From the IMG/VR virus record IMGVR_UViG_3300029288_000086, positions 32,001 through 96,000 of that record: DNA of 64,000 nucleotides; one strand, written 5' to 3'. Shown here one piece after another: positions 469 through 28,916 of the stretch; the first letter of the stretch is position 1, and each line of letters starts with the position of its first letter. The position numbers and the translations under genes are program-made. Below the pieces are notes generated by a model. The model had not been told where the DNA came from. It worked only from the letters and a program-made list of their open reading frames with translations, and did no database searches. The stretch is from a virus. Lineage: Duplodnaviria; Caudoviricetes.

Positions 469-584
469 TTATTAACTATACGAATGGAGAAACTATTATA
501 TTTGATAATAGTTAATAATCAGAAATACCCCATGAAATCGGCATTTCATGGACTAAAATAAAATTAGATAAATAAGGAGATAAT

Positions 585-803
585 ATGATTTCAAATACAG
601 TCAAGAATAAGTTGAAAGTTTCTTTGACAGAAAACCTTGAAGATTGGTGGGAAACAGAAAGTGGAAATATGCTTGGAGATATTCCATGGCTTGGGGACAA
701 TACTATTGATAATATGGCAGAATCGGTTTTACTAATATTGCTATCTCTTGATGATGCTCAAGATTGGATGTCAAAAGAAGGCATGTTCACGGAAGATGTT
801 TAA
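585..803 (+). CDS. hypothetical protein (between repeat sites)
   Basis: AAGGAG RBS; flanked by sites 531 and 807. Confidence 0.7.
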   Translation: MISNTVKNKLKVSLTENLEDWWETESGNMLGDIPWLGDNTIDNMAESVLLILLSLDDAQDWMSKEGMFTEDV

Positions 804-846
804 CCCAATGAAATTGGCCTTTTTCATGGGGCTATAAAGAGATAAA

Positions 847-1134
847 ATGGAAAATTTTGAAATATATCATGCTTATATAGAATCATCTGATCCTGATGAT
901 TATCCATTCAAAGACGCTGGAGTATTTTTGAATGATTACGATTTGGCATTAACCTCATTGCTAAAAACTTGGAGAACTATTAAAAATCATTTTGACAAAA
1001 CTGAACAGTATAATCCATATTCGTATTTAGTAATAGATAGTTGGAAATATAATGGAAATTCAAAATTATCAAATAATCGCATATATTCAGAATATAGTTT
1101 AGATGTAAATATAGAAAACATAGGAGAAAAATGA
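847..1134 (+). CDS. hypothetical protein
   Basis: ORF with RBS after site 807. Confidence 0.65.
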   Translation: MENFEIYHAYIESSDPDDYPFKDAGVFLNDYDLALTSLLKTWRTIKNHFDKTEQYNPYSYLVIDSWKYNGNSKLSNNRIYSEYSLDVNIENIGEK

Positions 1135-1337
1135 AAAAATATCAAGTGTTGTTTTGCAATGACAATAAGATTTGTTTTCAAGGGGAAGACGGAATTGTTA
1201 ATCCACAAGAAGCTTTAAGTGGCGGAGGAAATATCTTTGATTTTTCGAGCGATAAAAAAGAGTTGAGAATGAAGCCAGGAACAAAACCAGATGAATATGT
1301 GAGTGTTGAGCATGTTGAGTTTTGGTTAGTAAAATAA
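1131..1337 (+). CDS. hypothetical protein
   Basis: AGGAG RBS, ATGA coupling with the upstream gene. Confidence 0.7.
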   Translation: MKKYQVLFCNDNKICFQGEDGIVNPQEALSGGGNIFDFSSDKKELRMKPGTKPDEYVSVEHVEFWLVK

Positions 1338-1387
1338 CCCCATAAAAGCGTCATTTCATTAGGTAAAATTATATAAAAGGATAAATA

Positions 1388-1723
1388 ATGAAACATATTT
1401 ATGATTGTACATATACGTATCAATTGGCAAGAAAGAAATTGTTTGGCACAAGGAAAGACAGTTATTGGGGATATATTAAACCGGCATATGTGGATGAATT
1501 GATTGTATCGGACTTCTTTAGAAATCAATTAAAAGATGTAGGCGATAAACATCAAAACGGAGATGATTGGTATTTAGACTATACAATTACCGAAGTAGAA
1601 GTTAGATATAAAATTGCTGATGAATTATATAGTTTTTCTGGGTTATCTTCCAATTTATCTGCCGGAGATTTCTTAGAGTATTGTAAAGATCATATGATTA
1701 CATCAGTAATTATTACTACATGA
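1388..1723 (+). CDS. hypothetical protein
   Basis: AAGGA RBS; stop codon lies inside site 1719. Confidence 0.7.
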   Translation: MKHIYDCTYTYQLARKKLFGTRKDSYWGYIKPAYVDELIVSDFFRNQLKDVGDKHQNGDDWYLDYTITEVEVRYKIADELYSFSGLSSNLSAGDFLEYCKDHMITSVIITT

Positions 1724-1752
1724 AACTGCCATTTCATTGAAAGGAGGAATTA

Positions 1753-2508
1753 TTGAGATTAAACGACAATATAGTTATAAAACAATGCGATTGTATGGAA
1801 ACAATGAAATTAATTCCTGACAATTATGTTGATATGGTATTATGTGATTTGCCGTATGGAACAACTTCAAACAAATGGGATTCAATTTTGCCCATAAATG
1901 ATTTGTGGACACAATATAAACGGATTTGTAAAGATAATGCGATTATAGCTCTTACTGCATCTCAACCGTTTACGTCAATGTTGGTAATGAGCAACTTAGA
2001 AATGTACAAACATGAATGGATTTGGATTAAAAATAGAGGAAGTAATTTCGCAAATACAGTAAGAGAACCAATGAAGGAACATGAATCTGTTTTAATTTTC
2101 AGTAAAGGAAAGTGGACTTATAATAAACAGATGCAAGAAAGAACTGGATCTGGTCTTAGTAGAATGAAATATGATTTCAACACAGTTACAAAATCAGAAA
2201 ATTATAGGGAGTTTGAAAGACCACCGTCTGGTGGTGGAGAATTACGTGTTCCTTCTAGTTGGCAAAAGTTTAATACTGAAGTGGGTTTGCACCCAACACA
2301 AAAACCCGTTGCATTATTTGAATATTTAATTAAGACTTACACGAATGAGAATGAAGTTGTTTTGGATAATTGCGCAGGAAGTTTCACAAGTGGAGTTGCC
2401 TGTATAAATTTAAATAGAAAATATATTGGGTATGAGTTAGATGAAAAATACTTTGAAATTGGTAAAAATAGACTTTTAAAAGCTTTAAATACAAAAAATA
2501 CCCCATGA
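1753..2508 (+). CDS. DNA methyltransferase (N4C/N6A, beta class)
   Basis: CDLPYG motif IV, HPTQKP, VLDNCAGS motif I, GYELD; AAGGAGG RBS with TTG start. Confidence 0.93.
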   Translation: MRLNDNIVIKQCDCMETMKLIPDNYVDMVLCDLPYGTTSNKWDSILPINDLWTQYKRICKDNAIIALTASQPFTSMLVMSNLEMYKHEWIWIKNRGSNFANTVREPMKEHESVLIFSKGKWTYNKQMQERTGSGLSRMKYDFNTVTKSENYREFERPPSGGGELRVPSSWQKFNTEVGLHPTQKPVALFEYLIKTYTNENEVVLDNCAGSFTSGVACINLNRKYIGYELDEKYFEIGKNRLLKALNTKNTP

Positions 2509-2607
2509 AACAGATATTTCATGCACTTTAATATGAAATTAATTGCATGTTCGGGTATAAAATAGGGTTTATTATGCAAGATATTGCATGTTAAGAAGGA
2601 GAAAATA

Positions 2608-2769: not shown

Positions 2770-2792
2770 TCAAATATAAAAAGGAGAATAAA

Positions 2793-3068: not shown

Positions 3069-3127
3069 TAACTTCCCCATAAAACGAAAATTTCATGGGA
3101 AATAATTAATAAAGAAAGGAGGATTTT

Positions 3128-3313: not shown

Positions 3314-3387
3314 ATACCCCATGAAACAAGAGTTTTATTGACGTGACAGCGCCTATATTTATATCTGAGATCAGAAAGGATTATAAT

Positions 3388-4214: not shown

Positions 4215-4216
4215 AT

Positions 4217-4288
4217 AACGGGTTAGAGTAGTGGTTCACTCAGGAGCCTCATAAGCTTCGCACACATGTTAGAATCATGTGCCCGCTA
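4217..4288 (+). tRNA. tRNA with CAT anticodon (Met-like, divergent)
   Basis: Cloverleaf: D stem GAGT/ACTC, anticodon loop CTCATAA, T arm ACATG-TTAGAAT-CATGT; one acceptor-stem mismatch. Confidence 0.7.
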
Positions 4289-4431
4289 TTTGCACTAGAT
4301 ATCTAGTGCATAACTAATCCTGTACCCTTGAATGAGGCGACGGGGCAAGTCCTTATCTAATCATAAAACTCGGATTAAAGATCAGCAGGATTCCTCGATA
4401 TAAAAGGGTAAGAGAATAAGAGGAAAAATTT

Positions 4432-4506
4432 GTACCCTTAGCTCAGTTGGTCTAGAGCAAGCGGCTCATAACCGCTGGGTCACAGGTTCAAGTCCTGTAG
4501 GGTACA
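4432..4506 (+). tRNA. tRNA with CAT anticodon (Ile2-like)
   Basis: Perfect cloverleaf GTACCCT/AGGGTAC, AGCGG-CTCATAA-CCGCT, GGTTCAAGTCC; C4:G69 and C5:G68 as in lysidine tRNA-Ile. Confidence 0.92.
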
Positions 4507-4507
4507 C

Positions 4508-4973: not shown

Positions 4974-5102
4974 AAAAATAGTCTATCAAATATAATAACA
5001 ACAGGAGGTGAAAAATCCACGCTACCCCATGAAAGCATTATTTTATGCACCATATTTTTTGCAACACAAAATTTTAGTAAGTTTATAGATAAAGGAGATT
5101 AA

Positions 5103-6014
5103 ATGAGTTTTAGTTTTACTAAGGCAACAAAAGGCAAAAAGCCTGTTAGAATTGTTATTGGTGGGCCAAGTGGCTCCGGCAAGACGTACACATCCCTGAC
5201 TTTCGCACAATATCTTGAAAATATCACAAAGAAACCAACCGCCGTTATTGACACTGAGCATTATCGTGCCAGCCTTTATGCGGATAAGTTTGGTTTTGAG
5301 GTAAACAATTGGGAACCCCCATTTGATCCTCGTGAGCTTATCAAGGCTATTCACGAAGTAGAACAAGCGGGATTTGGTCAACTTATTGTTGATAGTAGCA
5401 CCCATTTCTATTCTGGGCAAGGTGGATTGCTCGAAATTGTTTCAGACGCAGCAAAGACGCGCTATGGTGGAAATCAGTATGCTGGATGGGCAGTTGGTAC
5501 ACCCGTACAAAATGACTTGGTAGATACCATTATTCGATCACCATTGCATATCATTTTCTGCACGAGGGCAAAACAAGCCTACGAGGAAACTGAAAAGAAT
5601 GGCAAGAAAACATATGAAAAAACCGGTATGGAACTTCAACAGAGGGATGGCTTTGAGTATGACTTCGATTTCTCGTTGATGATGGATATGGATAACAATG
5701 CTGTTGTTGCTAAAGGTATGGGGCTTGTAACTCTCGGAATGTATATCAAAAAACCTGATTACAAGACCATTGAAAATATTCTGAAGTCCATTAATGATAA
5801 CGCCACTGAAAATTCAATTTCTCCGGTGCGAATCGGTGAATTGCAAAAACAAATTATTGGTGTTTGTAAAGAACTTGGTGGAAAAACAAATACAAAGTTG
5901 ATGGAAACTTTGGAAAAATATACTCCAGATAAGAATCCAGAGCATATTGATGATGAATCCAAATTGGTTGAACTATTGGCTGAAGTTGAGAACTTGAAAA
6001 AGGAGAAAAAGTAA
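5103..6014 (+). CDS. AAA ATPase, Sak4-like recombination protein
   Basis: Walker A GPSGSGKT, VIDTE, LIVDS, FEYDFD; directly upstream of SSB. Confidence 0.85.
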   Translation: MSFSFTKATKGKKPVRIVIGGPSGSGKTYTSLTFAQYLENITKKPTAVIDTEHYRASLYADKFGFEVNNWEPPFDPRELIKAIHEVEQAGFGQLIVDSSTHFYSGQGGLLEIVSDAAKTRYGGNQYAGWAVGTPVQNDLVDTIIRSPLHIIFCTRAKQAYEETEKNGKKTYEKTGMELQQRDGFEYDFDFSLMMDMDNNAVVAKGMGLVTLGMYIKKPDYKTIENILKSINDNATENSISPVRIGELQKQIIGVCKELGGKTNTKLMETLEKYTPDKNPEHIDDESKLVELLAEVENLKKEKK

Positions 6015-6015
6015 A

Positions 6016-6417
6016 ATGAATTTCGATTGCAAATCTAAAGTATTGGCAACAAAAGTTGAAAAGAAAGGTAGTTTTTCTTTGGTCTTTCTCCGAGATTCTC
6101 GCCACGACAAAAAAGCAGATAAGTGGATTCCTAGTCCTTATACCAATGTCCACTTCGTTGCTGGAGCGCATGCCAAAATCGATGAATTGATTAATGCCAT
6201 TAATTCTGCTGATAAGTTTGCAGATGGCAATTCCAAGGGAGTTTACATTCAACCAGGGAGTTGCAGTCTCACAAATGAAGTCTATGAAAAAGAAGATGGC
6301 ACAAAAGTTTATCCAAAACAATTTACTGTTTGGGATTGGGAGTTTGCTGGAGAGAAATCAACCGATGATAATTCTCAAGAATCTGTTGAAGCATCTTCTA
6401 GCGATTTGCCCTTCTAG
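6016..6417 (+). CDS. single-stranded DNA-binding protein-like
   Basis: Acidic tail ending DLPF; position between Sak4 and primase. Confidence 0.7.
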   Translation: MNFDCKSKVLATKVEKKGSFSLVFLRDSRHDKKADKWIPSPYTNVHFVAGAHAKIDELINAINSADKFADGNSKGVYIQPGSCSLTNEVYEKEDGTKVYPKQFTVWDWEFAGEKSTDDNSQESVEASSSDLPF

Positions 6418-6438
6418 TTAATTTCATTACAACAAGTT

Positions 6439-6470
6439 ATAAAGGCGGAGTTTATTTTCTCCGCCTTTAT
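6439..6470 (+). terminator. intrinsic terminator-like hairpin
   Basis: ATAAAGGCGGAG-TTTATTTT-CTCCGCCTTTAT. Confidence 0.7.
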
Positions 6471-6489
6471 AGAATGGAATAATTTATAA

Positions 6490-8454
6490 ATGCTGATTGA
6501 TAAAGATTTAATCGTTGAAGCAAAAAAAACATTGGGTGAAGAAGCAGCAAATATTATAAAAAATGATCTCGATTTACAAAATTGGGATGATAAAAATTTG
6601 AAATCTCTCTGCCCGTTCCACGAGGAGGACACGGGAAGTTTTATTTGGAATCACAAAGATAATGCCTTCAAATGTTTTGGATGTGGCGTCCATTATAATA
6701 TTGTAGATCATTACATGCAATTTAATCGTCTAACTTTTATTGGTGCAATTCAAAAATTATTTGAACAAACTGAAACAAAGTATTCTTTTGGCGAGCAAGG
6801 TGTAAAAACTGAAAAATATTATAAATATCCTTTTTATGATCATTCAGAAGATAGATCGAAAGTAGAGGATTATTTAAAATTAAGACATATTTCTAATACA
6901 ACGCTAGATTTGACAGATGTTCAACAAAGCAATGATGGCAATATCGTATTTAATTATTATGATACCAATGATGTATTGACATTAGTGAAATATCGTCCTG
7001 CAAAACAAGTCAAAAAAGGCGATACTAAAACATGGTGTCAACAAGATGCAGATTCTATGCCATTGTTATTTAATATGAATCGCATTGATTTTACTAATGG
7101 GCCACTATTGATATGCGAAGGAGAAATAGACTGTCTTTCCGCCATTGAAGCCGGATATAAGAATGCAGTTAGTGTTCCTTTAGGGGCCAATAATTATGGG
7201 TGGATAGAAGCTTCGTGGGATTGGCTAGAACTATTCGATAGAATTATTATATGGTCAGATAATGACGAAGCCGGATTAAAAATGAGAAAAGAAGTATGTT
7301 CTCGTTTGGGCGTATGGCGTACTTTGTATGTAGATATGCCAATCCTCTTGGACAAAGATGGAAGTGAAATAAAAATTAATGATGCAGATGGAAAAAAGAG
7401 AGGCGTAAAAGATATTAATGAAGTTCTTTATTATTGTGGAAAACAAAAGGTTCTAGATTTAATTACCGAAGCAAAAGAATTGCCCATTGAAGGTATTGAG
7501 GACTTATCATCAGTTGAACCTTTTGATATAGAATTAGCGCCAGGATTATATTCTGGATTAGAGCCAATAGATAAAACTATTTATAAATTTTTATTTGGTA
7601 GTGTCATTGTTGTGACAGGTCTCAGGGGGGCAGGCAAGTCCACATTGCTTAACCAATGTTTTGTGTGTGAACCATTAGAGCAAGGATATGATACTTTTAT
7701 TTTTAGTGGCGAATTAAGTTCCCCAGTATTGCAAAGTTGGGTAGAATTATCTATGGCTGGCCCCGAACAAGTTAAGATGAAAACAGAACACATTCATGTT
7801 ATCAATGCAGATGCAATGAAACAAATGAAAGAGTGGTATCATGGAAGAACATGGACATATAACCAGACCGACAACAAATTAGAATCAATTCTAGACAAAG
7901 CAGTTAGCGTTACTAGAAAATATGGTGTTAAAATTTGGCTTTTAGATAATTTATCAACTATTGATATTGGTGCCAATGATAATAACCTTTTAGAGAAACA
8001 AAAAAATGTTATTGTGGAATTAATTAAACATGCAAAAACCTACAATGTCTTAATCATTCTTGTTATTCATCCACGCAAATTACAAGCAGGAACCGTAGAC
8101 ATTGTTTCAGATGATGTTGGTGGAAATGGCGCACTTACTAATTTAGCGCAATATGTTATTTCCGTAAAAAGATTTTCCCAAAAAGATAAAGCCGGAGAAA
8201 GGGATGGAAAAGGGAATTGGAAAAAGGGGAAAGAGCCTATTTCAGAAGACGTTGAAGTAAATATTTTAAAAAATCGTTATACGGGAAAAATAGAAGCACA
8301 TAAATTGTTTTTCAATTACAAATCTTACAGATTTTTTTCTAACGCAAGAGAATTATTTAAAAGATATGGATGGGATAAAAATAGGAATCGTCCTATTCCA
8401 ACATTAGAAAGTGAAGATCCAAGATTTGCTTCACCAGATTTTATGAAGGATTAA
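6490..8454 (+). CDS. primase-helicase (Zn finger, TOPRIM, SF4 helicase)
   Basis: CPFH..C..C Zn finger, CEGEID and DNDEAG TOPRIM, GLRGAGKS Walker A, LDNL, HPRK, KNR. Confidence 0.93.
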   Translation: MLIDKDLIVEAKKTLGEEAANIIKNDLDLQNWDDKNLKSLCPFHEEDTGSFIWNHKDNAFKCFGCGVHYNIVDHYMQFNRLTFIGAIQKLFEQTETKYSFGEQGVKTEKYYKYPFYDHSEDRSKVEDYLKLRHISNTTLDLTDVQQSNDGNIVFNYYDTNDVLTLVKYRPAKQVKKGDTKTWCQQDADSMPLLFNMNRIDFTNGPLLICEGEIDCLSAIEAGYKNAVSVPLGANNYGWIEASWDWLELFDRIIIWSDNDEAGLKMRKEVCSRLGVWRTLYVDMPILLDKDGSEIKINDADGKKRGVKDINEVLYYCGKQKVLDLITEAKELPIEGIEDLSSVEPFDIELAPGLYSGLEPIDKTIYKFLFGSVIVVTGLRGAGKSTLLNQCFVCEPLEQGYDTFIFSGELSSPVLQSWVELSMAGPEQVKMKTEHIHVINADAMKQMKEWYHGRTWTYNQTDNKLESILDKAVSVTRKYGVKIWLLDNLSTIDIGANDNNLLEKQKNVIVELIKHAKTYNVLIILVIHPRKLQAGTVDIVSDDVGGNGALTNLAQYVISVKRFSQKDKAGERDGKGNWKKGKEPISEDVEVNILKNRYTGKIEAHKLFFNYKSYRFFSNARELFKRYGWDKNRNRPIPTLESEDPRFASPDFMKD

Positions 8455-8455
8455 A

Positions 8456-11400
8456 ATGAATAATTATATCAATTATCATTCGCATACATCTATGTCGAAC
8501 ATTAGCACTCCAGATAGCGTGATTTCTAATCGAGATCGCGCTATACGTGCTTCTGAATTAAAACAAACAGTTTTGAGCGGCGTGGAACATGGGTGGATGG
8601 GCAAAGTAATTGAAACAATAGAATTATCAAAGGAATTTAATATCAAACCTTTATTGGGTTCTGAAGTTTATGCCGTTAAAAATAGATTTGAAAAAGATAA
8701 AACAAATGCACATCTTATTTTATTAGCGAAAAATGAAAATGGAAGAAAGTCAATCAATAGACTTTTGAGCGAATCAAATGTATCGGGCTTTTATTATAAG
8801 GCAAGATGTGATTTTGAATTATTGTTCAATCTGCCTAAAAATGATGTTTGGGTTACTACGGCTTGTATTGCTGGGTTCCCATGGAAATACGAAGATTCAG
8901 AAAATATAATTGAACAACTATTAGACCACTTTGAAAATAATTTATTTTTAGAAGTACAAAATCATCATACAGATTCACAAAAAATATTAAATAAAAGAAT
9001 CGTTGAATTATCCAATCGTTATCATATTCCACTTATTGCAGGGATGGATAGTCATATGATATATCCTAACCAAGCACAAGAACGAGATGACTATTTATTG
9101 TCTCGCGGTATTGAATATCCAGATGAACAAAACTGGTTTTTAGATTTTCCTTCTTATGAAGAAGCACTACAAAGATTCAAAGACCAAGGTGTTTTGAATG
9201 ATGTAAAAATTGAAGAAGCATTAGATAATACCAATATATTCAATGATGTTAAAGAATATAATTCTATTGTTTTTAATCCCGATATTATTAAACTGCCTAC
9301 TTTATATCCTAATCATAAGCAAGAAGATAAAAATAAAATTCTTGAAACATTAGTTTGGTCTAAATGGGAACAAGAAAAAAACAACATTTTTTCAAGTCAG
9401 CATGCTTATTATGAGGGCGAAATTAGGAAAGAATTAGACACTATTTTCGAAACTAATATGGCTGATTATTTTTTGCTTGATTACGAAGTTATTAAAAAAG
9501 GCAAAGAAATGGGCGGACAAATCACACTAACGGGGCGCGGATCTGCTGTCAGCTTCTATATTTCTAAACTTTTAGATTTTACCACAGTAGACAGAATTGC
9601 GGCGAGTGTCAAATTGTTTCCAGAAAGATTTATTTCCGCAGAGCGATTGTTAGAAACTAAAAGCCTACCCGACATAGACTTTAATTTAGGTAATCCAGAA
9701 GTTTTTGTAAAAGCACAAGAAATTATTATTGGCGAAGGACATAGCTATCCAATGATTGCTTTTGGAACCGTGAAAGCATCTGGAGCATGGAAGTTATTTT
9801 CAAGAATTTCTAACATAGATTTTGATACTGCAAACGATGTTTCAATGCAACTACAAAAATATGACATGGATTTGAAACATGCCGAAAGCGAAGAAGAAAA
9901 AGAATCTCTTGATGTTTTAGATTATATTGAACCTAAATACCATAATATTTTCAATGAAAGCAAAAAATATTTAGGATTAGTGAATTCATTAACTCCCCAT
10001 CCTTGTGCAACACTTCTCTTCAATAATGGAGATATTCGTGAGGAATTTGGTTTAATAAAAATCAAGACAGGCAACGTAGAGCATATTTGTGCGTGTTGTG
10101 ATGGTTTATTTGCAGAAAACTATAAGTTGCTAAAAAATGATTTACTTAAAGTTAATGTTGTAAAATTAATTTATGGCGTATACGAGAGAATTAATTTATG
10201 CCCACATACTATCCCCGAATTATTGAAAGTATGCGAAAATGATAAATCAGTATGGGATGTTTACGCCAATGGTTGGACAAAAGGAATCAATCAATTTGAG
10301 CAAACAGGCACAAGAGGTAGAGCCACTAAATATAAGCCTCACAATATTTCAGAACTTTCGGCTTTTGTCGCTGCCGTAAGACCTGGTTTCAAATCAAATT
10401 ATGATGCTTTTGAAAGCAGGCAAGCATTTGAGTATGGCGTAAAATCTCTTGATGAGTTGATTCAAACAAAAGAATTCCCATATAGTTTTATGATTTATCA
10501 AGAAAACGCTATGCAGGTAATGGCATATGCTGGAATTCCTATCGCCAAAACTTATGAAATTATTAAAAATATCGCTAAAAAACGTGTCGAAAAAGTAAAA
10601 AAATATAAAGATCAATTTATTACTGGAATGAAAAAAAAATTAGTTGATGATGAAAATCTCAACGCCGAAGAAGCAAAAAAAGTTGCTTTAATGACATGGC
10701 AAATTATTGATGATTCTAGCAGATATTCCTTCAACAGTGCGCATGCATATAGTGTAGCGGGAGACTCATTATATGGCGCATATTTGAAGTCGCATTATCC
10801 CCTGGAATTTTATGAAGTATTTTTAAACATTCTTGAAGAAGATGGAGATAAAAACAGGCTATCAGAAGTAAAAATAGAAGCACAAGAAGCATATGGGATA
10901 AAATTTCCTTCACTAAAATTTGGTCAAGATAATCGTAAAATTGTAGCCAATGCTGCTACAAAAGAAATTAATCAATCTATGCAAATTTTAAAAGGTTTTG
11001 GAAATACGGTTGGAGAAAAATTTTATAACCTATCTCTTGATTTTCTCGGCAATGATTTTCTTGAGTTGCTAGTCTATGCGGAAGAAAGTGGATACATGTC
11101 TGCCAAATGGGACAAGCTCATTAAAATTAATTATTTTGATAAATTTGGGAGCAATGGAAAATTATATGAGATTTATAAAGAATTCACAGATGGTGAAAAT
11201 AAATATCAAAAAACTTATGTTGAAAAAACAAAAATAAAAAGATTAGAAACACTAAAAGAAATATGGAATAATTTACCCAATAAAAAAATTCCGTTTAATC
11301 AACAGTTGAAAAATGAATTTGAAATATTGGGAACCATTCAATCTATTTATCCTGAATTAAATAAAAAATATAAAGAAGAAAAATTCCCAACTAAATATTA

Positions 11401-11695
11401 TTATATTAAAGACTTAAATCTTACTTACGCTCCACGGCTAGAATGTTATAATTTGGCTAAAGGAACACAAGGCTCAATTAAAATGTATAAAGCAACGTAC
11501 AACAACAAGCCTTTTTCTGTGGGCGCAATCATAAAATTAAAACAAGGATGGTATGAAGAAAAACCAAACACAAAACCAAACATTAACAATGTTTTTGTTC
11601 CAGATGGAACTGGAACACATTATATTATAAGCAAGTTTGAGTTAGTTACACCAGAAGAATTAGACAAAATATTAGAGGAAAAAACAAATGCCTGA
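8456..11695 (+). CDS. dnaE: DNA polymerase III alpha subunit
   Basis: PHP domain HSH, GRGSA, PDIDF catalytic motif, FNSAHAYS, YLKSHYP. Confidence 0.95.
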   Translation: MNNYINYHSHTSMSNISTPDSVISNRDRAIRASELKQTVLSGVEHGWMGKVIETIELSKEFNIKPLLGSEVYAVKNRFEKDKTNAHLILLAKNENGRKSINRLLSESNVSGFYYKARCDFELLFNLPKNDVWVTTACIAGFPWKYEDSENIIEQLLDHFENNLFLEVQNHHTDSQKILNKRIVELSNRYHIPLIAGMDSHMIYPNQAQERDDYLLSRGIEYPDEQNWFLDFPSYEEALQRFKDQGVLNDVKIEEALDNTNIFNDVKEYNSIVFNPDIIKLPTLYPNHKQEDKNKILETLVWSKWEQEKNNIFSSQHAYYEGEIRKELDTIFETNMADYFLLDYEVIKKGKEMGGQITLTGRGSAVSFYISKLLDFTTVDRIAASVKLFPERFISAERLLETKSLPDIDFNLGNPEVFVKAQEIIIGEGHSYPMIAFGTVKASGAWKLFSRISNIDFDTANDVSMQLQKYDMDLKHAESEEEKESLDVLDYIEPKYHNIFNESKKYLGLVNSLTPHPCATLLFNNGDIREEFGLIKIKTGNVEHICACCDGLFAENYKLLKNDLLKVNVVKLIYGVYERINLCPHTIPELLKVCENDKSVWDVYANGWTKGINQFEQTGTRGRATKYKPHNISELSAFVAAVRPGFKSNYDAFESRQAFEYGVKSLDELIQTKEFPYSFMIYQENAMQVMAYAGIPIAKTYEIIKNIAKKRVEKVKKYKDQFITGMKKKLVDDENLNAEEAKKVALMTWQIIDDSSRYSFNSAHAYSVAGDSLYGAYLKSHYPLEFYEVFLNILEEDGDKNRLSEVKIEAQEAYGIKFPSLKFGQDNRKIVANAATKEINQSMQILKGFGNTVGEKFYNLSLDFLGNDFLELLVYAEESGYMSAKWDKLIKINYFDKFGSNGKLYEIYKEFTDGENKYQKTYVEKTKIKRLETLKEIWNNLPNKKIPFNQQLKNEFEILGTIQSIYPELNKKYKEEKFPTKYYYIKDLNLTYAPRLECYNLAKGTQGSIKMYKATYNNKPFSVGAIIKLKQGWYEEKPNTKPNINNVFVPDGTGTHYIISKFELVTPEELDKILEEKTNA

Positions 11696-11888
11696 ATACA
11701 ACTTTAAATGTACATTATGCAATACAAAATTTTCTATCTTTAGATCAATGAAAGAATCATGGGAAGTATATTGTCCAAAATGCAGAAGTGAACACCTAGA
11801 AAGAATCTTCTTCCCTACTCCTGTCGTATTTAATGGGAAAGGATTTTATAATACAGATTCACGAGCACCCTTGACACCAGAAGAATAG
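11688..11888 (+). CDS. FmdB-family zinc-ribbon protein
   Basis: MPEYNFKC..C...CPKC...FNGKGFYNTD. Confidence 0.85.
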   Translation: MPEYNFKCTLCNTKFSIFRSMKESWEVYCPKCRSEHLERIFFPTPVVFNGKGFYNTDSRAPLTPEE

Positions 11889-12374: not shown

Positions 12375-12423
12375 CCCCATGAAATGGTATTTTCATGTGG
12401 TACTAAAAATAAAAAGGAAAAAA

Positions 12424-12702: not shown

Positions 12703-12747
12703 TCACCATAAAATGAAGTTTTCATGGGATAGAGAAAAAGGATAATT

Positions 12748-12942: not shown

Positions 12943-12991
12943 ATATAACCCCATGAAATCAAACTTTCATTGGATATAGAAAGGAATAATA

Positions 12992-13279: not shown

Positions 13280-13328
13280 CCCTATGAAATAAATGTTTTA
13301 TTGAATTAAATATAAAAAAGGAAAATTT

Positions 13329-15053: not shown

Positions 15054-15311
15054 ATGGATGTACAAATTAAAAAAGATAATGTTTTTATTGGGATACCAAT
15101 GAAAAATAGAAGATTTGTTGTAGATAAAGAAACTCTGAATACAATATTATCAGACAACGGATTCCAAGAAACATTTTACCTTAATATAAAAAATTTAGGA
15201 AATGAATTATTTTCTATTTATTTTCAAGATAAAAAAGATGTCCCTTTTGATAGGAATAATATTTATTTTCCTGGACACGATAATATAAATATCGAAAGAA
15301 AACTAACATGA
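15054..15311 (+). CDS. hypothetical protein
   Basis: RBS; stop inside site 15307. Confidence 0.65.
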   Translation: MDVQIKKDNVFIGIPMKNRRFVVDKETLNTILSDNGFQETFYLNIKNLGNELFSIYFQDKKDVPFDRNNIYFPGHDNINIERKLT

Positions 15312-15326
15312 AATGGAGATTTCATA

Positions 15327-15548
15327 ATGATAAATACTAGTCAATTTGAAGAAATAAATAAGATTACCGACCCCATAGATGCAGCTAAAAGATATCTCCG
15401 TGCTGTTTCTTTGTTTAGAGACAATTGTGAAACCGACATAAATGAAATAATTTTTGACGATTTAGCATATCGCTTTACAGAAAAATGGGCTGAGATTGTT
15501 TCTAAATTACCCAATGAAAGCGCAATTTCATTGGAGGATAATGGATAA
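15327..15548 (+). CDS. hypothetical protein
   Basis: GGAG RBS lies in the spacer of site 15307; reads through site 15513. Confidence 0.6.
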   Translation: MINTSQFEEINKITDPIDAAKRYLRAVSLFRDNCETDINEIIFDDLAYRFTEKWAEIVSKLPNESAISLEDNG

Positions 15549-15732: not shown

Positions 15733-15975
15733 ATGGTAAACAATTATTACAAATGGACAGACGAACATATCCAAGAATTAAAAACGAAAGCAAAAAATCT
15801 TGATGGATATATTCTCTACTCTTTATACTGTAACGCATTAGATGAATTATTGTCACTAGCAAAAGAAACTAGTGTCATGTATGATAATCGAAGAGAATTT
15901 GAAGAAAAATATCGCAATTTATATAACATATTAGAAAAAGTTCAAGACGAAATAAATGATAACTTTCAACAATAA
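15733..15975 (+). CDS. hypothetical protein
   Basis: GGAG RBS; stop inside site 15971. Confidence 0.65.
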   Translation: MVNNYYKWTDEHIQELKTKAKNLDGYILYSLYCNALDELLSLAKETSVMYDNRREFEEKYRNLYNILEKVQDEINDNFQQ

Positions 15976-15999
15976 AACTATTATTTCATGAGGTAAAAT

Positions 16000-16272
16000 A
16001 TGACAAAATGTTCTGCAATTATTCAGTTTGGTGATGATTATGGCGATAATCATTGCACATTTCATTGTCAGTTAGATGAAGGTCATTCAGACGAACATTT
16101 AGAAATTGGTAATATGTATGGGGTTCCTTATCGCCTAGAATGGGTTGGTGATATGACGGAAAAGGAAATTGATGAATCTGGATTGAGTTTGATTAAAGAA
16201 GAAGATAGAGATGAATTGCCTACTGTTATGGAAGACGCAATGATGAAGGCAATAAGAAATAAAAGCACATAA
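16000..16272 (+). CDS. hypothetical protein
   Basis: GAGG RBS; flanked by sites 15971 and 16268. Confidence 0.7.
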   Translation: MTKCSAIIQFGDDYGDNHCTFHCQLDEGHSDEHLEIGNMYGVPYRLEWVGDMTEKEIDESGLSLIKEEDRDELPTVMEDAMMKAIRNKST

Positions 16273-16295
16273 AACGACCATTTCATGAGGATAAT

Positions 16296-17381: not shown

Positions 17382-17851
17382 TAAGAATAATCGAAGATGA
17401 TATTTTCAATTCACCCATAAACACCATTATTTGCCATCAAGTAAATTGCCAAGGTGTCATGGGAAGCGGTATTGCTAAGGAAATTAAATCTCGTTATCCG
17501 TCCGTATATGAACAATATAAATCTTTTTGTGGCAGTTTAGATAGAAAGTACCTTTTAGGAATGGGACATTTGTCCATAGACAATCGCACCAATAGAGTTA
17601 TTGGAAATTTATTTGGGCAAGATGGTTATGGGAAAGGGTTGCAAACAGATTATTTTGCTTTACAATCTGCTCTCGGAGATGTAAAGAAATTTGCAAAAGA
17701 TCATCACCTCCTTGTCGCTATACCGTTCGGTATAGGGCGTGGTTTTGGAGGTGGAGATTGGAATATTGTGTATAAAATAATAGAAACCGTTTTTGAAGAT
17801 TATGACAATGTTGTTATTTATAAGCTACCAGATGAAACACGCATTTCATGA
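17378..17851 (+). CDS. macro domain protein (ADP-ribose processing)
   Basis: ICHQVNCQGVMGSGIA, NLFGQ, IG.G.GGGDW. Confidence 0.9.
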   Translation: MIRIIEDDIFNSPINTIICHQVNCQGVMGSGIAKEIKSRYPSVYEQYKSFCGSLDRKYLLGMGHLSIDNRTNRVIGNLFGQDGYGKGLQTDYFALQSALGDVKKFAKDHHLLVAIPFGIGRGFGGGDWNIVYKIIETVFEDYDNVVIYKLPDETRIS

Positions 17852-18339: not shown

Positions 18340-18340
18340 T

Positions 18341-18673
18341 GTGAAAACTAAATTTAAATTAGCAGGAAGTTCAGCCAACGTGGTTTTACGTGATGGAAAA
18401 ATATTTTATGATAGAAAGTATGCAGATGATTATTTAGTTTGCGAACAAGCCGAAACATCAAATGTTTTCTCTTTTCAAGAACATTTTTTGCCCATGATAA
18501 AAAAGACCACACAATCCTCTTCATTTGAAGACGGCAGATATCATGTTTATTTTACGGGAACGGTTGTTTGGAACGGTGGGCATAATAGTGAAAGCGGAAT
18601 CTGGGAGGGTTGGGATAAACCAGAATTAGATTATGTGCATTGGAAAAAACTAAATGACACCATGAAAGAATAG
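18341..18673 (+). CDS. hypothetical protein
   Basis: Coupled; stop in the spacer of site 18661. Confidence 0.6.
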   Translation: MKTKFKLAGSSANVVLRDGKIFYDRKYADDYLVCEQAETSNVFSFQEHFLPMIKKTTQSSSFEDGRYHVYFTGTVVWNGGHNSESGIWEGWDKPELDYVHWKKLNDTMKE

Positions 18674-18697
18674 TTTCATGGGCCTAAAAGGAGAAGA

Positions 18698-21231: not shown

Positions 21232-21254
21232 ATACACAATGAAAGGAATATTTC

Positions 21255-21674
21255 ATGGGACTTAAAAAATTATCACAAGACTTAATTAATAATATGTATT
21301 TTGATTATGATGACGGACAAGAAATTATAGAAGAAACGGCATTAGCTGCGTTATTGCAATCAGAAATAGCATTTTGCTATCCGCAACCAAATAAGTCAAA
21401 AGAAGATGAATCTGTTATAGCATTGGGCGTAAATTGCAATGATATATTTTGGTGGGGTTGTGCAGATTTGGAGCTTTTTAATTATTCTGAAATTCAATCT
21501 TTGTATGAATCATCTTTTGATAAAGAGGGAAATGAAAAACCATGGGGATCAATTATTTGGTCTTGTTTGCATAGAAAAATGAGACCGCAACACCCAGTTG
21601 AAGATATGATGAAAAAGCAAGGATTTTGGACTAATGATTTAGAAGCACTACCTGTTCGTGTGAATACTGGATAG
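21255..21674 (+). CDS. hypothetical protein
   Basis: Start codon is the ATG of site 21238; ends just before site 21679. Confidence 0.7.
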   Translation: MGLKKLSQDLINNMYFDYDDGQEIIEETALAALLQSEIAFCYPQPNKSKEDESVIALGVNCNDIFWWGCADLELFNYSEIQSLYESSFDKEGNEKPWGSIIWSCLHRKMRPQHPVEDMMKKQGFWTNDLEALPVRVNTG

Positions 21675-21770
21675 TCTCCATGAAAGAGTCATTTCATGGG
21701 ACAATGACCACTGTATATAGTGGTAGTATGACAGATATGGTAGAAGATATGAAGGCAATGAAAGGATAAT

Positions 21771-23319: not shown

Positions 23320-23361
23320 TACCATGAAATAAGGATTTTATTGGTCTGGAAGGAGAAATAA

Positions 23362-24135
23362 TTGAAACTTAAAGATATAGCAAAAGAATCGTATTATCAT
23401 GAAAAAGGTGGAATGCTTTTAAAAGGTGATTGTTTAGATTGGATGCCGAAATTACCAGACAAGTCTATTGACATGATATTATGTGATTTACCTTACGGTA
23501 CAACAAAATGTCGTTGGGATACAATTATCCCACTAGATAAATTATGGTTGCAATATAATAGAATTATAAAAGATAATGGATCTATATGTTTGTTTGCTCA
23601 ACTTCCTTTCGATAAAGTTCTTGGATGTAGCAATTTGGAAATGTTACGATATGAATGGGTATGGGAAAAGGAACAAGGAACAGGGAATTTGAATGCCAAT
23701 AAAATGCCTTTAAAAAAGACTGAAAATATTCTTGTTTTCTATAAAAAGTTACCTTTATATAATCCTCAAAAAACCATTGGAAGACCATATGAAATTGAAA
23801 GAGAATATAATGATAACGAAATATTTGGGAAAACAGGAACAAGAGATGGATATATTACTAAGAATGATGGTTTTAGATATCCAACAAATATTTTAAAGTT
23901 TAATCGAGAACTGAAGAACAGATTACATCCAACGCAAAAACCAGTATTATTACTTGAGTATTTAATCAAAACTTATACTAATGAAAATGAAATTGTCTTA
24001 GATAATACGGCAGGATCGTGTGGTGTGGCAATTGCCTCTAAAAACATTAATCGTAAATGGATTTGTATTGAGAAAGATCAAAAGTATTGTGATGTTTCTA
24101 TAGACAGAATTAAGAATTGGACAATAACCCCATGA
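23362..24135 (+). CDS. DNA methyltransferase (beta class)
   Basis: CDLPYG, HPTQKP, VLDNTAGS; paralog of 1753..2508. Confidence 0.93.
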   Translation: MKLKDIAKESYYHEKGGMLLKGDCLDWMPKLPDKSIDMILCDLPYGTTKCRWDTIIPLDKLWLQYNRIIKDNGSICLFAQLPFDKVLGCSNLEMLRYEWVWEKEQGTGNLNANKMPLKKTENILVFYKKLPLYNPQKTIGRPYEIEREYNDNEIFGKTGTRDGYITKNDGFRYPTNILKFNRELKNRLHPTQKPVLLLEYLIKTYTNENEIVLDNTAGSCGVAIASKNINRKWICIEKDQKYCDVSIDRIKNWTITP

Positions 24136-24166
24136 AATGCAAATTTTATTAAAAGGAGAATGAATA

Positions 24167-24385: not shown

Positions 24386-24386
24386 A

Positions 24387-24602: not shown

Positions 24603-24855
24603 TATGAGTAAATCTCAAATATATGACCCAAATACCTTGACAAGAATGAGCTTTCGTGATAGACTATATCAATGGCTATCAAAGAAATTACCTTGGAGAT
24701 TGGTCTGGTTTTGTGTAATTAGAGCATTGGGTATATACAATTCTTATCGAAGATTATACCCAAATACTTTCAATATGCCTACATCTGGACTTACTGTAAT
24801 AGAGTTAATTCATAGGTTGGATGAAAAAAGATTCGATGAATGGGAGCAATAATTA

Positions 24856-25176
24856 TTGAAAAAAATATGCTTTTATTGTGGAGAAGAAATTAATGAAAAA
24901 GATTTGTATTGGTCAGAACCAATAGAAGGTGCTTATCCCTCAAGATATGGTAACTTATTTTTTCATAAAGAAAAATGTTACAGAAAAATAAACAATATAC
25001 ATCGGTATATAAAGGACAATACTGAAAAGATATTAGAAACACTTACAAATAGCAATCCTCAAATACCAAAAAGACTAGATTCAAAAATACCTATAAACAA
25101 AAAAGAAGTAAAGAAAAATGAGAAAATTAAAACAGAAAAAACAAAAAGCAAGCATTATTCTAAAAGAAAGAGGTAG
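24856..25176 (+). CDS. hypothetical protein
   Basis: GGAG RBS, CxxC motif. Confidence 0.55.
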   Translation: MKKICFYCGEEINEKDLYWSEPIEGAYPSRYGNLFFHKEKCYRKINNIHRYIKDNTEKILETLTNSNPQIPKRLDSKIPINKKEVKKNEKIKTEKTKSKHYSKRKR

Positions 25177-25490: not shown

Positions 25491-25511
25491 TTACAATAAA
25501 ACAATAATTTC

Positions 25512-25721
25512 ATGGAGAATAATATGACAGTTGCATCTTATGTAATTTTAGGAATAGTCGGATGGATAATGTTTGGATCAATTGTTTTGGGTGGTATTGA
25601 CAAAAATCTAGAAATTACCAATTGGAAATTGCATGCTGTTTGGTGGTTGAGATTATTGGTAAATTTATTCTGGCCTATTATTGCTGTTATATATTTGAGT
25701 AAAAAGAATCACACGAAATGA
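25512..25721 (+). CDS. small membrane protein
   Basis: Two hydrophobic segments; begins in site 25495. Confidence 0.6.
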   Translation: MENNMTVASYVILGIVGWIMFGSIVLGGIDKNLEITNWKLHAVWWLRLLVNLFWPIIAVIYLSKKNHTK

Positions 25722-25749: not shown

Positions 25750-26301
25750 ATGATAAATAAATATATTATTGATAGTGATATTACACATATCGTCTTAAGA
25801 GAAACAGACACCGAATATATGGAAACATTGATTGATACTGAAGATTTACATAAATTAATAAATTTTAAATATAGTTGGTTTCCGGCATATTTGCAAAGCC
25901 CAAAGGCATACTACGCTCATTGTACAGAATATTTATCATCAAATCATGGCGTTCCAATTAATCGAACAATAGGGTTGCAGTGTTTTGTTTTAGACTTACA
26001 AGGGAACGATAATTGCCACGTAGATCATATAAACCATAATGCGCTAGACAACAGAAAAGAAAATTTAAGAATTATTAAAGCAAAAAACAATTTGACAAAT
26101 AGAAAATCAAGAAATTGTAACAATACTTCTGGGCATAGAAATGTATGCAAAATAAACAACAAATGGGTCGTACAATTACAAGTCAACGGCAAAAATACAA
26201 GATTAAAATCTTTTCCATTGGATAAATTAGATGAGGCTAGTGCATACGCAGAAGAGATGAGGCAATTACATTATGGAGATTTTGCAGGATTTGATTTATG
26301 A
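25750..26301 (+). CDS. HNH homing endonuclease with AP2-like C-terminus
   Basis: VDHINHNALDNRKENLR, NTSGHRNV. Confidence 0.85.
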   Translation: MINKYIIDSDITHIVLRETDTEYMETLIDTEDLHKLINFKYSWFPAYLQSPKAYYAHCTEYLSSNHGVPINRTIGLQCFVLDLQGNDNCHVDHINHNALDNRKENLRIIKAKNNLTNRKSRNCNNTSGHRNVCKINNKWVVQLQVNGKNTRLKSFPLDKLDEASAYAEEMRQLHYGDFAGFDL

Positions 26302-27017
26302 CTTATCAAATATATAATCAAAACAATACAAAAGTTTGTAGTCTACCAAAAGTAGATTTAATATATGCGGACATGATCTACGAGAATGAAAACCTTTCAT
26401 GGATTTATGATTTTTTCGATTTACTTAAACCCAATGGAATTTTTATCGTCCAAACGGATTTTCATACAAATTATTTAGTGAGAGATGTTCTTGAGAATAT
26501 CCGTCAAGCAACATTTGTAAATCATTTGGTTCAAAAAAACGAATGGGGCAACCATCCTAAGAATAGATTTCATCAATGCTATGATGACATTATAATTTTC
26601 TGTAATGGCAAAAATTGGAAATTTTATCCAGAAAGAATTCAAGTAGATAAAGTTACAAAAAACAAAGGACTGAATCCTTCAGGTAGGCAAACAAAACAAG
26701 CAACAGCATGGATAGACGATGTTTGTTTAACTACAACTTCAAAAGAACGAGTCAAGAAAGAAGATGGGCATTTGATTCGATGGCAAAAACCCTTAAAATT
26801 ATTTGACAGAATTATTGCCCCATTTACTGACGAAGGAGATGTAATATTAGATCCTTTTATGGGCAGTGGAAGTCTTGGAGAATGGTGTATAAAAAATAAT
26901 AGGAATTATGTCGGAATTGAATTAGATAAAAAGATTTTTGGACTAGCAAAACAAAGATTGGAAAAACTTACCCCACGAAATATCACTTTCATTGAAAAAG
27001 GACAAAAATATGTTTAA
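26298..27017 (+). CDS. DNA methyltransferase (beta class, atypical motif IV)
   Basis: WQKP, ILDPFMGSGS, GIELD; DMIY in place of DPPY. Confidence 0.85.
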   Translation: MTYQIYNQNNTKVCSLPKVDLIYADMIYENENLSWIYDFFDLLKPNGIFIVQTDFHTNYLVRDVLENIRQATFVNHLVQKNEWGNHPKNRFHQCYDDIIIFCNGKNWKFYPERIQVDKVTKNKGLNPSGRQTKQATAWIDDVCLTTTSKERVKKEDGHLIRWQKPLKLFDRIIAPFTDEGDVILDPFMGSGSLGEWCIKNNRNYVGIELDKKIFGLAKQRLEKLTPRNITFIEKGQKYV

Positions 27018-27289
27018 TGATATGCCAAAGGGTTTTCCTAAAAATATAGGCATTATAAAGATACCTATAGGGCATCCTTATTCATATTCTAAAAATAAAA
27101 GAAAGGAGAATACAATGGAAATTTTAAGTAAAGATAAAATAAATAAATTAATAGATATGTATAGCATTGAAGATACCGTCAATACTTTTCTATCAAAAAC
27201 TATCAATAAATTTCCACTTACAGAAGATGAATTAAAATTAGCATTTCAGATTATTGATCGCTGTTTTGTAAAATATTATTTAGATTAGA

Positions 27290-27523
27290 ATGGAAAATAA
27301 AATGATTAAATATTTTCACGAATTAACATTTGCTGAACATTTTGATATTTATAATAGGGCATTATCATGGAACAGAATAAGAAAAAAATATCCCGAGCCT
27401 CCCTGGTGCTCCAATGAAAACGCAGTTCAGGGATTGATGGGATGTGACAATTTGATGATACATGCAATTAAATCTGAACTAGATTGTCAAGAATGTAGAT
27501 TTTATAAGAGAGGAAAAACATGA
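27290..27523 (+). CDS. hypothetical protein
   Basis: Cys-rich ORF in the gene string. Confidence 0.55.
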   Translation: MENKMIKYFHELTFAEHFDIYNRALSWNRIRKKYPEPPWCSNENAVQGLMGCDNLMIHAIKSELDCQECRFYKRGKT

Positions 27524-27677
27524 ACGATATTAGAATGTTAATAGAGCAACAATTAAAAGATTTTATTGATTTTCTAGCGGAAAGAAAATACTTTTTATTA
27601 TCTGAAAAAGAACATTCTAGAATCACTTTTAAAATTTTACAAGAATTAATTAATGAATATATGGAGAAAATTTAATT

Positions 27678-28505
27678 GTGCAAGCATATTTAAACATTGT
27701 AAAAGATATTTTAGATAATGGCGTATTAAAAGAAAATCGTACAGGTGTAAACGCTCTTGCTATTAGTGGAGCTATGTTTTCACATGATATGCGAGAAGGC
27801 TTTCCATTGCTTACCACAAAGAAAATGTCTTTAAAAAACATTGCAGTAGAATTAGAATTTTTTATCAAAGGCTTGAGCAGTAAAAAATGGCTACAAGATA
27901 GATGGAATTTTATATGGAATAGCTGGTGTAATCCACAAAAAGTTCCATATGGTACAGACGAAGAAACCAAGCGAAGAATGCGGGAAGAAGATGATTTGGG
28001 AGCAATTTATGGAAAGCAATGGCGTAATTTCGGCGGAGTCGACCAGCTAAAAAATGTTGTAAATACCTTGAAGGCAAATCCAAATGATCGCAGGATGATC
28101 GTAAGTGCTTGGAATCCACCAGAGCTAAACCAAATGGCACTTCCTCCTTGTCACTTAATGTTTCAAGTAATTGTAATTAATAATACAATTAATCTAAACT
28201 GGTATCAGCGCAGTGTAGACACAATGTTGGGATTGCCCTATAATATCGCATCTTACGGATTGTTGCTAGAACTTTTGGCAAAAGAATCCAATCTAATTCC
28301 TGCTAAATTATGTGGAATGCTAGGTGATGTGCATATTTATGAAAATCATATTGAAAATACAAAAATTCAATTATGGCGTGAACCAATGGAATTGCCATCT
28401 ATAGAAATAACTAATTTTACAAATATTTTTGATTGGACATACAAAGACTTTTCTTTAGAAAATTATAAATCACATCCTGCAATAAAATTTGATATAGCGG
28501 TATAA
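27678..28505 (+). CDS. thyA: thymidylate synthase
   Basis: RTG, FPLLTTKK, RRMIVSAWN, ALPPCH, YQRSVD, PYNIASY, DVHIYENH. Confidence 0.97.
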   Translation: MQAYLNIVKDILDNGVLKENRTGVNALAISGAMFSHDMREGFPLLTTKKMSLKNIAVELEFFIKGLSSKKWLQDRWNFIWNSWCNPQKVPYGTDEETKRRMREEDDLGAIYGKQWRNFGGVDQLKNVVNTLKANPNDRRMIVSAWNPPELNQMALPPCHLMFQVIVINNTINLNWYQRSVDTMLGLPYNIASYGLLLELLAKESNLIPAKLCGMLGDVHIYENHIENTKIQLWREPMELPSIEITNFTNIFDWTYKDFSLENYKSHPAIKFDIAV

Positions 28506-28514
28506 GGAGGTAAA

Positions 28515-28706
28515 ATGACATCAAAAGAGGAAAAAGATTTCACAGAGAAAGTAATTAGATTGTCATACAAATGTGCAAACGAATTGAACATCAAGAGAGA
28601 AGATATTGTTAGTCAAATTTTTATAAAATGGCTTATCGACAAAGTAGATAATTTTGAAAAGGAATCTCATAAAAATGAAGACAAAAATATTGATATTGCT
28701 GTATAA
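28515..28706 (+). CDS. hypothetical protein
   Basis: AAGGAGG RBS. Confidence 0.6.
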   Translation: MTSKEEKDFTEKVIRLSYKCANELNIKREDIVSQIFIKWLIDKVDNFEKESHKNEDKNIDIAV

Positions 28707-28916
28707 TCCTAAAACCAAAGAATACATTGAATCACTATCCAATGAAAGTGACATTTCATGGTGTGAGGGTTGGGTTAAGGCAATGGATTTTAGTGACATG
28801 TTTTTTATTAAGAGATGGATATTGAGATTAAGGTTAGAGTATAAGTTTAGGGATTTAGGGCTAAGTTTGAGATGGAAAAAAGTGTTAGTATTTGATGGGG
28901 TTAGGGGTGTGGTGTA

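Follow-up and report, generated by a model that had tools for sequence, protein, structure and literature searches.

What is the function of the short inverted repeats that recur between the early genes of the tailed-phage contig IMGVR_UViG_3300029288_000086? The stretch of DNA analyzed here (the window; 64,000 nucleotides) comprises bases 32001–96000 of this linear IMG/VR virus contig, which is 143,090 bp long, 78% complete by CheckV and ~31% in GC content; it is called G000 below. Early genes occupy the + strand to ~33 kb of the window, and late genes occupy the − strand. The early products include an AAA_24 ATPase, a primase-helicase and a DnaE-type polymerase by Pfam, along with three N6/N4 DNA methylases, a thymidylate synthase, a ribonucleotide reductase and a CCA-adding-like enzyme. 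Judged by the polymerase, the nearest named phages (37–40% amino acid identity) are Geobacillus E3, Clostridium c-st, the Tsamsa-like Bacillus siphoviruses and the Lactococcus 949 group, and a search of the phage collection at the nucleotide level gave no match. Each repeat is a dyad of two arms around a 6-bp spacer, and we put it at about an even chance that these dyads are crossover joints addressed by their spacers and served by a site-specific enzyme.

The dyads are far too numerous to be a product of local composition, with 25 exact matches to ATRAAA-N6-TTTYAT in the window versus 0.39 ± 0.60 expected from dinucleotide-preserving shuffles. Twenty-four of the exact copies lie between 532 and 28759, one more is found at 49973, and tolerance of one arm mismatch adds dyads at 26975 and 34682. 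The status of the hits at 41078 and 61560, with spacers of 7 and 5 bp, respectively, is doubtful, and a hit at 7825, within the primase-helicase gene, is probably due to chance. In the whole contig there are 91 dyads at no more than one mismatch, against 0–7 in shuffles, and the array spans 0–61 kb and 101–143 kb of the contig, well past the window. Spacing is strict: alternative spacers of 3–5 or 7–9 bp yield only 1–7 hits in the contig, which is background. A preliminary description of this DNA had counted about 28 early dyads plus a few late ones, had given the spacer as 6 bp, and had noted that the replication block (5.1–12.3 kb) and the interval at 28.8–33 kb are free of sites, and all of these points are borne out. 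It had also likened the 11-6-11 architecture to Xer- and Cre-type core sites, and the symmetric logo with its 6-bp spacer fits that comparison. The logo is two-fold symmetric across ~28 bp, reading A-C-C-C-C-ATGAAA-(not A)-N4-(not T)-TTTCAT-G-G-G, and even the outermost spacer positions mirror each other, the first being anything but A and the last anything but T.

Placement of the dyads is equally regular. They lie between a stop codon and the following ribosome-binding site, with a median of 3.5 nt from the upstream stop codon to the dyad start and of 26 nt from the dyad end to the next start codon. A TGA or TAA in the left arm often doubles as the stop codon of the upstream gene, and most dyads run straight into the ribosome-binding site without a promoter. 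The spacers are almost all different, with 90 distinct sequences among the 91 sites of the contig. In all seven genomes tested, neighbouring spacers are more alike than random pairs, and in three the likeness reaches p < 0.05 (G000, p = 0.0005; Tsamsa, p = 0.002; FADO, p = 0.036), which suggests that dyad sites multiply locally. Past the window's end, at 115–127 kb of the contig, the dyads form composite junctions, in which many have an AGAACA/GAAC-N4-GTTC-like box ahead of them and CTTAACAG between them and the ribosome-binding site.

A further property of the spacers emerges from comparison with relatives. Scanning IMG/VR for the motif brought up four related contigs: the complete 160-kb genome G001 with 94 sites, G002, which nearly duplicates part of G001, G003 with 17 sites and G005 with 24. 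G000 and G001 are collinear, yet only 43.5 kb can be aligned between them, reciprocal best hits join only 87 of 282 predicted proteins, and any G001 homologue at all is found for only 52 of the 210 early-arm genes. Against this background, the two genomes share 47 exact spacer matches (5.6, at most 14, after shuffling of the letters in each spacer column), of which 46 are collinear (10.9, at most 16, after permutation of the site order). A further four collinear pairs have a single mismatch in the spacer. This ratio of exact to one-mismatch spacers (46:4) is independent of how the pairs were found and implies ~1–2% divergence per spacer base. By comparison, the two variable positions in the arms disagree in 19 of 88 cases, and even the best-conserved blocks of the alignment reach only 86–93% identity, which makes the site centre the most conserved sequence of the early arms. 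Identity drops to background within 1–2 nt beyond the 18-mer in these site pairs. Homology is lacking for the proteins on both sides in 35 of 44 pairs (only the right one is homologous in 6, only the left in 3), and nucleotide homology in the flanks is absent from 75 of 105 pairs.

The same pattern is seen at a single slot across more genomes. A metagenome scan with one slot's 20-mer recovered seven further related contigs, and at this slot nine genomes display at least seven unrelated left flanks and at least seven unrelated right flanks, in recombinant combinations such as that of contig L058, whose left flank is that of L064 and whose right flank is that of L067. Neighbouring slots hold their order across the nine genomes, with some present and others absent. 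Variants also co-occur: contigs L142 and L144, from one ENA assembly, carry an identical 63-aa gene (14787–14978) and the dyad at 14975–14992, then split at the base after TTTCATG into different genes, each preceded by an allelic promoter (sigma70-like in the window). A 16.4-kb Logan contig (run SRR8542065) starts 1 nt ahead of the dyad at position 30596 of the G000 contig and stops 1 nt past the dyad at 14975–14992 of the window, as would be expected if the assembly graph branches at dyads.

Walking along the window shows how the slots are distributed. The first dyad (532..549) has no partner in G001, and a dyad-like sequence with an atypical 8-bp spacer was picked up by the motif scan at 808..827. 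Spacers identical in G001 then follow at 1342..1359 (collinear as well, with a weak left arm, ATAAAA), at 1720..1737, immediately upstream of the DNA methylase gene at 1753–2508, at 2505..2522, where the TGA of the dyad is the stop codon of that methylase, and at 3079..3096; leftward of the replication module, the slots in common with G001 end at 3321..3338. To the right of the module, the first shared slot (12708..12725) has homology on its right flank only, and the next dyad (12953..12970) marks an extra cassette, since both the site and its downstream 95-aa gene are absent from G001. Further identical spacers occur at 13284..13301, 15308..15325, 15514..15531, 15972..15989, 16269..16286 and 24132..24149, the last of which supplies the TGA stop codon of a second DNA methylase (23362–24135, by Pfam). 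The motif scan places another dyad upstream of this methylase (23324..23341) and others at 17832..17849, 18662..18679, 21239..21256 and 21680..21697. The dyad at 25496..25513 has a G001 partner that is one spacer base off, the copy at 26975..26992 was recovered by the one-mismatch scan and has ACGAAA as its left arm, and the last dyad of the early arm (28742..28759) has homologous flanks on both sides in G001. In the late arm, the dyad at 34682..34699 adjoins the endolysin gene and has an identical spacer in G001, and the motif scan gives one more at 49973..49990.

The replication module (5103..11888, + strand) contains the AAA_24 ATPase, primase-helicase and polymerase genes, and the block between the dyads at its left (5029..5046) and right (12379..12396) edges behaves as one large unit. 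The only G001 counterpart is a polymerase of 27% identity located elsewhere in that genome, and the replication proteins of G003 are 25–56% identical to those of the window (polymerase 56%, primase-helicase 43%). The interval between the shared slots that flank the block is 9.4 kb in G000 and 16.3 kb in G001.

Other features of the early arm include + strand tRNA genes for Met (4216–4289 and 4432–4507) and Trp (18939–19014), and an HNH homing-endonuclease-like gene at 25750–26301 (+) with homologues in G001, G005 and FADO. The large subunit of ribonucleotide reductase is encoded by two open reading frames (ORFs), at 30726–31538 and 31773–32633 (+), which are separated by 234 nt and cover positions 1–211 and 234–337 and beyond of the Pfam barrel. 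A search for group I introns in this split gene found none at the Rfam gathering score, and the interruption could be an intron, an intein-like element or a frameshift.

Dyads of the same family also occur in cultured phages, where breakpoints can be followed more closely. The ATAAAA-N6-TTTTAT version, again with a strict 6-bp spacer, is over-represented in the Bacillus phage FADO (30 exact copies), PJN02 (28), 2S-4 (28), PK-3 (26), Tsamsa (21) and Geobacillus E3 (24), and as TAAAA-N6-TTTTA there are 34 copies in SPbeta and 30 in phi3T (control, 2 in each case). The array is absent from Lactococcus 949 and MT835481. FADO, PJN02 and PK-3 are mutually ~97% identical, so that their breakpoints are readable to the nucleotide, and breaks are found at 14 of 36 dyad junctions versus 32 of 222 other junctions (p = 0.0015). 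Homology ends 0–6 nt outside the dyad, and both genomes retain the dyad with its spacer. A dyad borders 10 of 18 pure indels on one side, and several inserts lie between a dyad and a decayed version of it whose spacer is nearly the same. The proposal that gene gains, losses and swaps among relatives should break at the sites stands in part: such events do join at dyads, and breakpoints also fall at dyad-free junctions. FADO and PJN02 have another palindrome in their early promoters, where it overlaps the −35 box (CCGTTGACAACG); examples lie at 53.2, 54.3, 57.9, 58.2, 58.7 and 59.8 kb of FADO (L087–L095), and the joints of deletions and insertions between these phages fall within it.

How might such joints work? 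In the explanation that we favour, each dyad would be a ~28-bp double-stranded DNA site, with two 11-bp arms flanking the 6-bp centre, to which a two-fold symmetric phage protein would bind. The arms are common to all sites, and the unique centre would act as an address, so that exchange, mainly between equal centres, would allow relatives to recombine in register without deletion of a phage's own DNA. Over evolutionary time the dyads would thus serve as crossover joints for the exchange, insertion and deletion of early-gene cassettes, and the same cassette traffic would probably occur during mixed infections. The likeliest mechanism would be conservative site-specific recombination by a tyrosine recombinase of the Xer/Cre type, enzymes that require identity in the overlap region. 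An invariant, slot-specific centre, variable arms, unrelated flanks, joints at the site edges and duplications of the site beside inserts are what a homology-dependent tyrosine recombinase would produce, and neither an operator nor homology-driven exchange alone would produce these five features.

An intercistronic palindrome in the direction of transcription could also form a hairpin in the polycistronic early transcripts and serve there as a processing site, a 3′ stabiliser or a terminator. Consensus copies are indeed predicted to fold at −10 to −11 kcal/mol. Across the 12 sites folded, however, energies range from 0 to −11 kcal/mol, with three at 0 to −2.3 kcal/mol (those at 1342..1359 and 25496..25513 both give 0), and the ATAAAA/TTTTAT form of the relatives could make only a six-pair A-U stem. 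The two common arm variants, a left-arm G changed to A and a right-arm C changed to T, almost never occur together: the counts are 46/12/25/1 in G000 and 43/16/21/0 in G001, so that ATAAAA/TTTTAT double variants, which would restore pairing, were seen once versus 8.2 expected in the two genomes combined. Such depletion is the opposite of compensatory pairing and is what a cooperative dimer on double-stranded DNA predicts, because one weak half-site is tolerated. Moreover, the variant that forms an A·C mismatch is commoner than the one that forms a G·U wobble. Terminator-like hits are not enriched (13 versus 8.5 ± 2.7), the dyads lack a U-tract, and an Rfam search of the dyads matched no family. 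The evidence supports the dyads as double-stranded DNA sites, with predicted binding by a symmetric protein, and makes an RNA hairpin very improbable. The preliminary description had preferred DNA over a hairpin from the uncompensated arm variation, and the case is now stronger than it was put there.

Two Xer-like tyrosine recombinases of the phage are candidates for the enzyme. The first (rec1; YomM/gp50 type), encoded at 46243..47238 on the − strand, matches Pfam PF00589 with conserved R, K, HxxR, W/H and Y residues, has an NCBIfam XerA/C/D-like match below cut-off, and finds its best SPbeta match in YomM (24% identity, E 3e-13). Its gene lies directly upstream of the tape-measure gene, as it does in 949, FADO and, as gp50, the Tyroviruses, and yomM of SPbeta is ~3 kb from the tape-measure gene with three genes between. 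The second, also intact, lies in the early arm at 26867–27775 of the contig (L070:6867-7775), ~4.2 kb upstream of the window; it likewise retains R, K, HxxR, H/W and Y, is 76% identical to its G001 orthologue and is weakly similar to SPbeta YopP (E 0.008).

The surroundings of rec1 hold several further features. A perfect 11-6-11 inverted repeat at 48651–48678 was considered as a recombination site and rejected: on the − strand a T-rich run comes after the repeat, which is absent from G001 and is probably an intrinsic terminator of the late operon. Between rec1 and the upstream tail genes is a free-standing GIY-YIG homing endonuclease gene (47257–48186, −), whose product has GIY-YIG, NUMOD3 and AP2 domains and an NCBIfam match to group I intron endonucleases; in G001, a dyad lies just upstream of the recombinase gene, where G000 has this endonuclease. 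In E3, the YomM-type recombinase (24114–25109) is 82% identical to that of SPbeta, which is unexpectedly close across host genera, and the other two recombinase-fold proteins of E3 and SPbeta are 31–34% identical.

A number of findings weigh against dedicated, addressed recombination. As to the enzyme, no result ties either recombinase to the dyads. Orthologues of rec1 adjoin the tape-measure gene in a much wider clade that includes the dyad-free phage 949, and 949 has both YomM- and YopP-like recombinases without the array, so that the pattern of presence and absence singles out no enzyme. In the Tyrovirus paper, the position of gp50 is described as curious, and the enzyme is conjectured to act at another, single 11-6-11 site (PMC9703825). 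As to the breakpoints, enrichment at dyads is just ~2.6-fold when only the early arm is considered (12 of 30 dyad junctions versus 21 of 102 others, p about 0.05), many breakpoints lie at junctions without a dyad, some of them at junctions with no motif, and the FADO promoter palindrome also serves as a joint, which means that short repeated homology alone can yield such events. Protein synteny between the early arms of G000 and G001 is not significantly more disrupted at dyads than elsewhere (22 breaks and 0 kept at dyad junctions versus 50 and 9 at others, p = 0.10), though the test points in the expected direction; the whole-genome value (p = 0.002) is confounded in that the late region is both conserved and poor in dyads. 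Nor are the ends of blastn high-scoring segment pairs between G000 and G001 enriched at dyads over gene boundaries generally (10 of 119 ends versus 11.7% of boundaries), these ends being too fuzzy for breakpoint use at 65–90% identity. One cassette occupies neighbouring slots in two genomes, so that addressing is not absolute. Finally, in Tsamsa and FADO the dyad stands 0–4 nt from the Shine–Dalgarno ribosome-binding site, a closeness that could point to a role in gene expression.

Many of these points would sit comfortably with a different explanation, in which the dyad is a regulatory or architectural site of a phage-encoded dimer (for the control of early-gene expression, as an elongation roadblock, or in a nucleoid-type function) and the joints arise passively, because relatives have this short sequence in common and it recurs along the whole arm; general or phage-encoded homologous or microhomology recombination would act on it, in the way suggested for the PeSL motifs of T4-type phages. 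The fixed position between stop codon and ribosome-binding site, the dyad-free breakpoints, the use of a second repeated regulatory motif as a joint and the dyad-free state of a phage with recombinases all favour it, as does the conservation of the arms among phages as distant as SPbeta, Tsamsa, FADO, E3 and the present clade. The spacers, however, are difficult to reconcile with it. In an operator, the spacer should be under the least constraint, and here it is far more conserved than either the variable arm positions or the best-conserved alignable blocks. Exchange driven by homology should suffer equally from a mismatch in either place, yet arm differences are frequent between orthologous sites and spacer differences almost absent, and the uninterrupted homology between different slots amounts to only 6–10 bp per arm. 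Among the early proteins with the highest conservation in G001, Pfam and PHROG searches also turned up no helix-turn-helix or other DNA-binding candidate. The homologues shared with FADO but not with 949 are metabolic, homing endonuclease or structural genes. We regard passive joints as a possible, though less likely, account.

A more specific regulatory alternative is that the dyads are operators or stoperators of a prophage master repressor, which would silence the early arms in lysogens. The stoperators of mycobacteriophage L5, which are bound by gp71, are asymmetric 13-mers, oriented with transcription, at which elongation is blocked in lysogens; the multi-copy, intergenic placement of the dyads matches this arrangement, and their symmetric logo lacks its asymmetry. 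In SPbeta, the SPbeta repeated element (SPBRE) is the operator of MrpR/YopR, a protein with a tyrosine recombinase fold, and occurs in about 10 copies at promoters (PMC10516654). An operator network of this type, which the preliminary description named as its alternative, gains some credence from the many intergenic copies in the early arms, from the existence of a recombinase-fold repressor in SPbeta-like phages (PMC10516654), and from the occurrence of dyads in phages that have a YopR-like gene and their absence from 949, which has none. It fails in SPbeta itself. There, 34 dyads contrast with ~10 MrpR peaks by chromatin affinity precipitation sequencing (ChAP-seq), all at SPBRE promoters (PMC10516654), and the element common to seven MrpR-bound promoters is a different ~20-bp sequence. 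Near aimR, this ~20-bp element and a dyad stand side by side upstream without overlapping. The dyads, although they share with SPBRE a multi-copy, intergenic character within the same phage lineage, are distinct from the SPBRE/MrpR operator, and SPbeta has them in addition to it. Since a repressor would also leave the conservation of spacers unexplained, we hold this alternative to be highly unlikely.

It is also conceivable, if extremely improbable, that the dyads are selfish miniature palindromes that transpose themselves, like repetitive extragenic palindromic (REP) sequences or miniature inverted-repeat transposable elements. High copy number, intergenic position and palindromic form would suit such elements. 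Every dyad centre is different, however, and the order of centres is kept across genomes; the unit is just 18–28 bp, its arms are conserved across genera, and no REP-associated tyrosine transposase (RAYT) or IS200-type transposase was seen among the ~55 ORFs scanned.

Several known systems resemble the array in part, and our literature search found no paper describing these dyads. The promoter-early stem-loop (PeSL) motifs of T4-type phages are composite units of promoter and terminator that are thought to recombine by homology (PMC2839356, PMC4122927). Like the dyads, they are short, conserved intergenic repeats in the variable early regions of large phages, and indels and replacements end at them. 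The dyads differ in having a promoterless 11-6-11 structure, in lacking the unit of promoter and stem-loop terminator, and in the site-specific centre that stays fixed while both neighbours change. A closer parallel in geometry is offered by the pdif sites of Acinetobacter plasmids, which have asymmetric arms (an XerC half and an XerD half), enclose modules between oppositely oriented sites and are assumed to use the host Xer proteins. Both kinds of site have an 11-6-11 layout, occur in many copies per replicon and bracket one or a few genes; by contrast, the dyad arms are symmetric, the phage encodes Xer-like enzymes of its own, and the centres form an ordered set of addresses.

The heterospecific lox and FRT sites used in recombinase-mediated cassette exchange come nearest to the proposed logic, having equal arms and differing spacers, such that only matching spacers recombine and internal deletion is prevented. 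That system is engineered, however, and the dependence of the dyads on an enzyme is putative. We know of no natural, genome-wide array of ~100 heterospecific sites. Integrons share with the dyads the order of stop codon, site, ribosome-binding site and ORF, as well as promoterless units of one or a few genes and rapid turnover. Their attC sites, however, are conserved in structure, recombine as folded single strands and lie beside an intI/attI/Pc platform. None of this applies to the dyads, whose arms are conserved in sequence and whose symmetry is that of double-stranded DNA; the head of the array has neither recombinase gene. In its defining features the array is not the integron-like system of the preliminary description, whose interpretation is otherwise supported in part.

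Phage genomes are mosaic, and the origin of their clean swaps at gene boundaries is debated, with illegitimate recombination followed by selection on one side and recombination at linker sequences on the other. The dyad is a concrete and widespread linker with a testable rule, namely the same arms and an address-like centre, and its presence in laboratory phages of Bacillus subtilis (SPbeta, phi3T, FADO and PJN02) makes it directly amenable to experiment. If a recombinase does use the dyads, the YomM/gp50 or YopP recombinases, which are conserved but unexplained, would acquire a function, the extreme turnover of early genes between relatives that keep half of their sites in common would be accounted for, and a natural set of orthogonal recombination sites would be at hand. 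Somewhat more tentatively, and at less than even odds in our estimation, the SPbeta-like phages, the Tyroviruses, Geobacillus E3 and the present clade may all share a dedicated system of ~30–100 heterospecific sites per genome on which a phage Xer-like recombinase of the YomM or YopP type would act. Were this true, the array would be nature's equivalent of recombinase-mediated cassette exchange, and co-infecting relatives would reassort their early cassettes slot by slot and in register, a form of programmed mosaicism.

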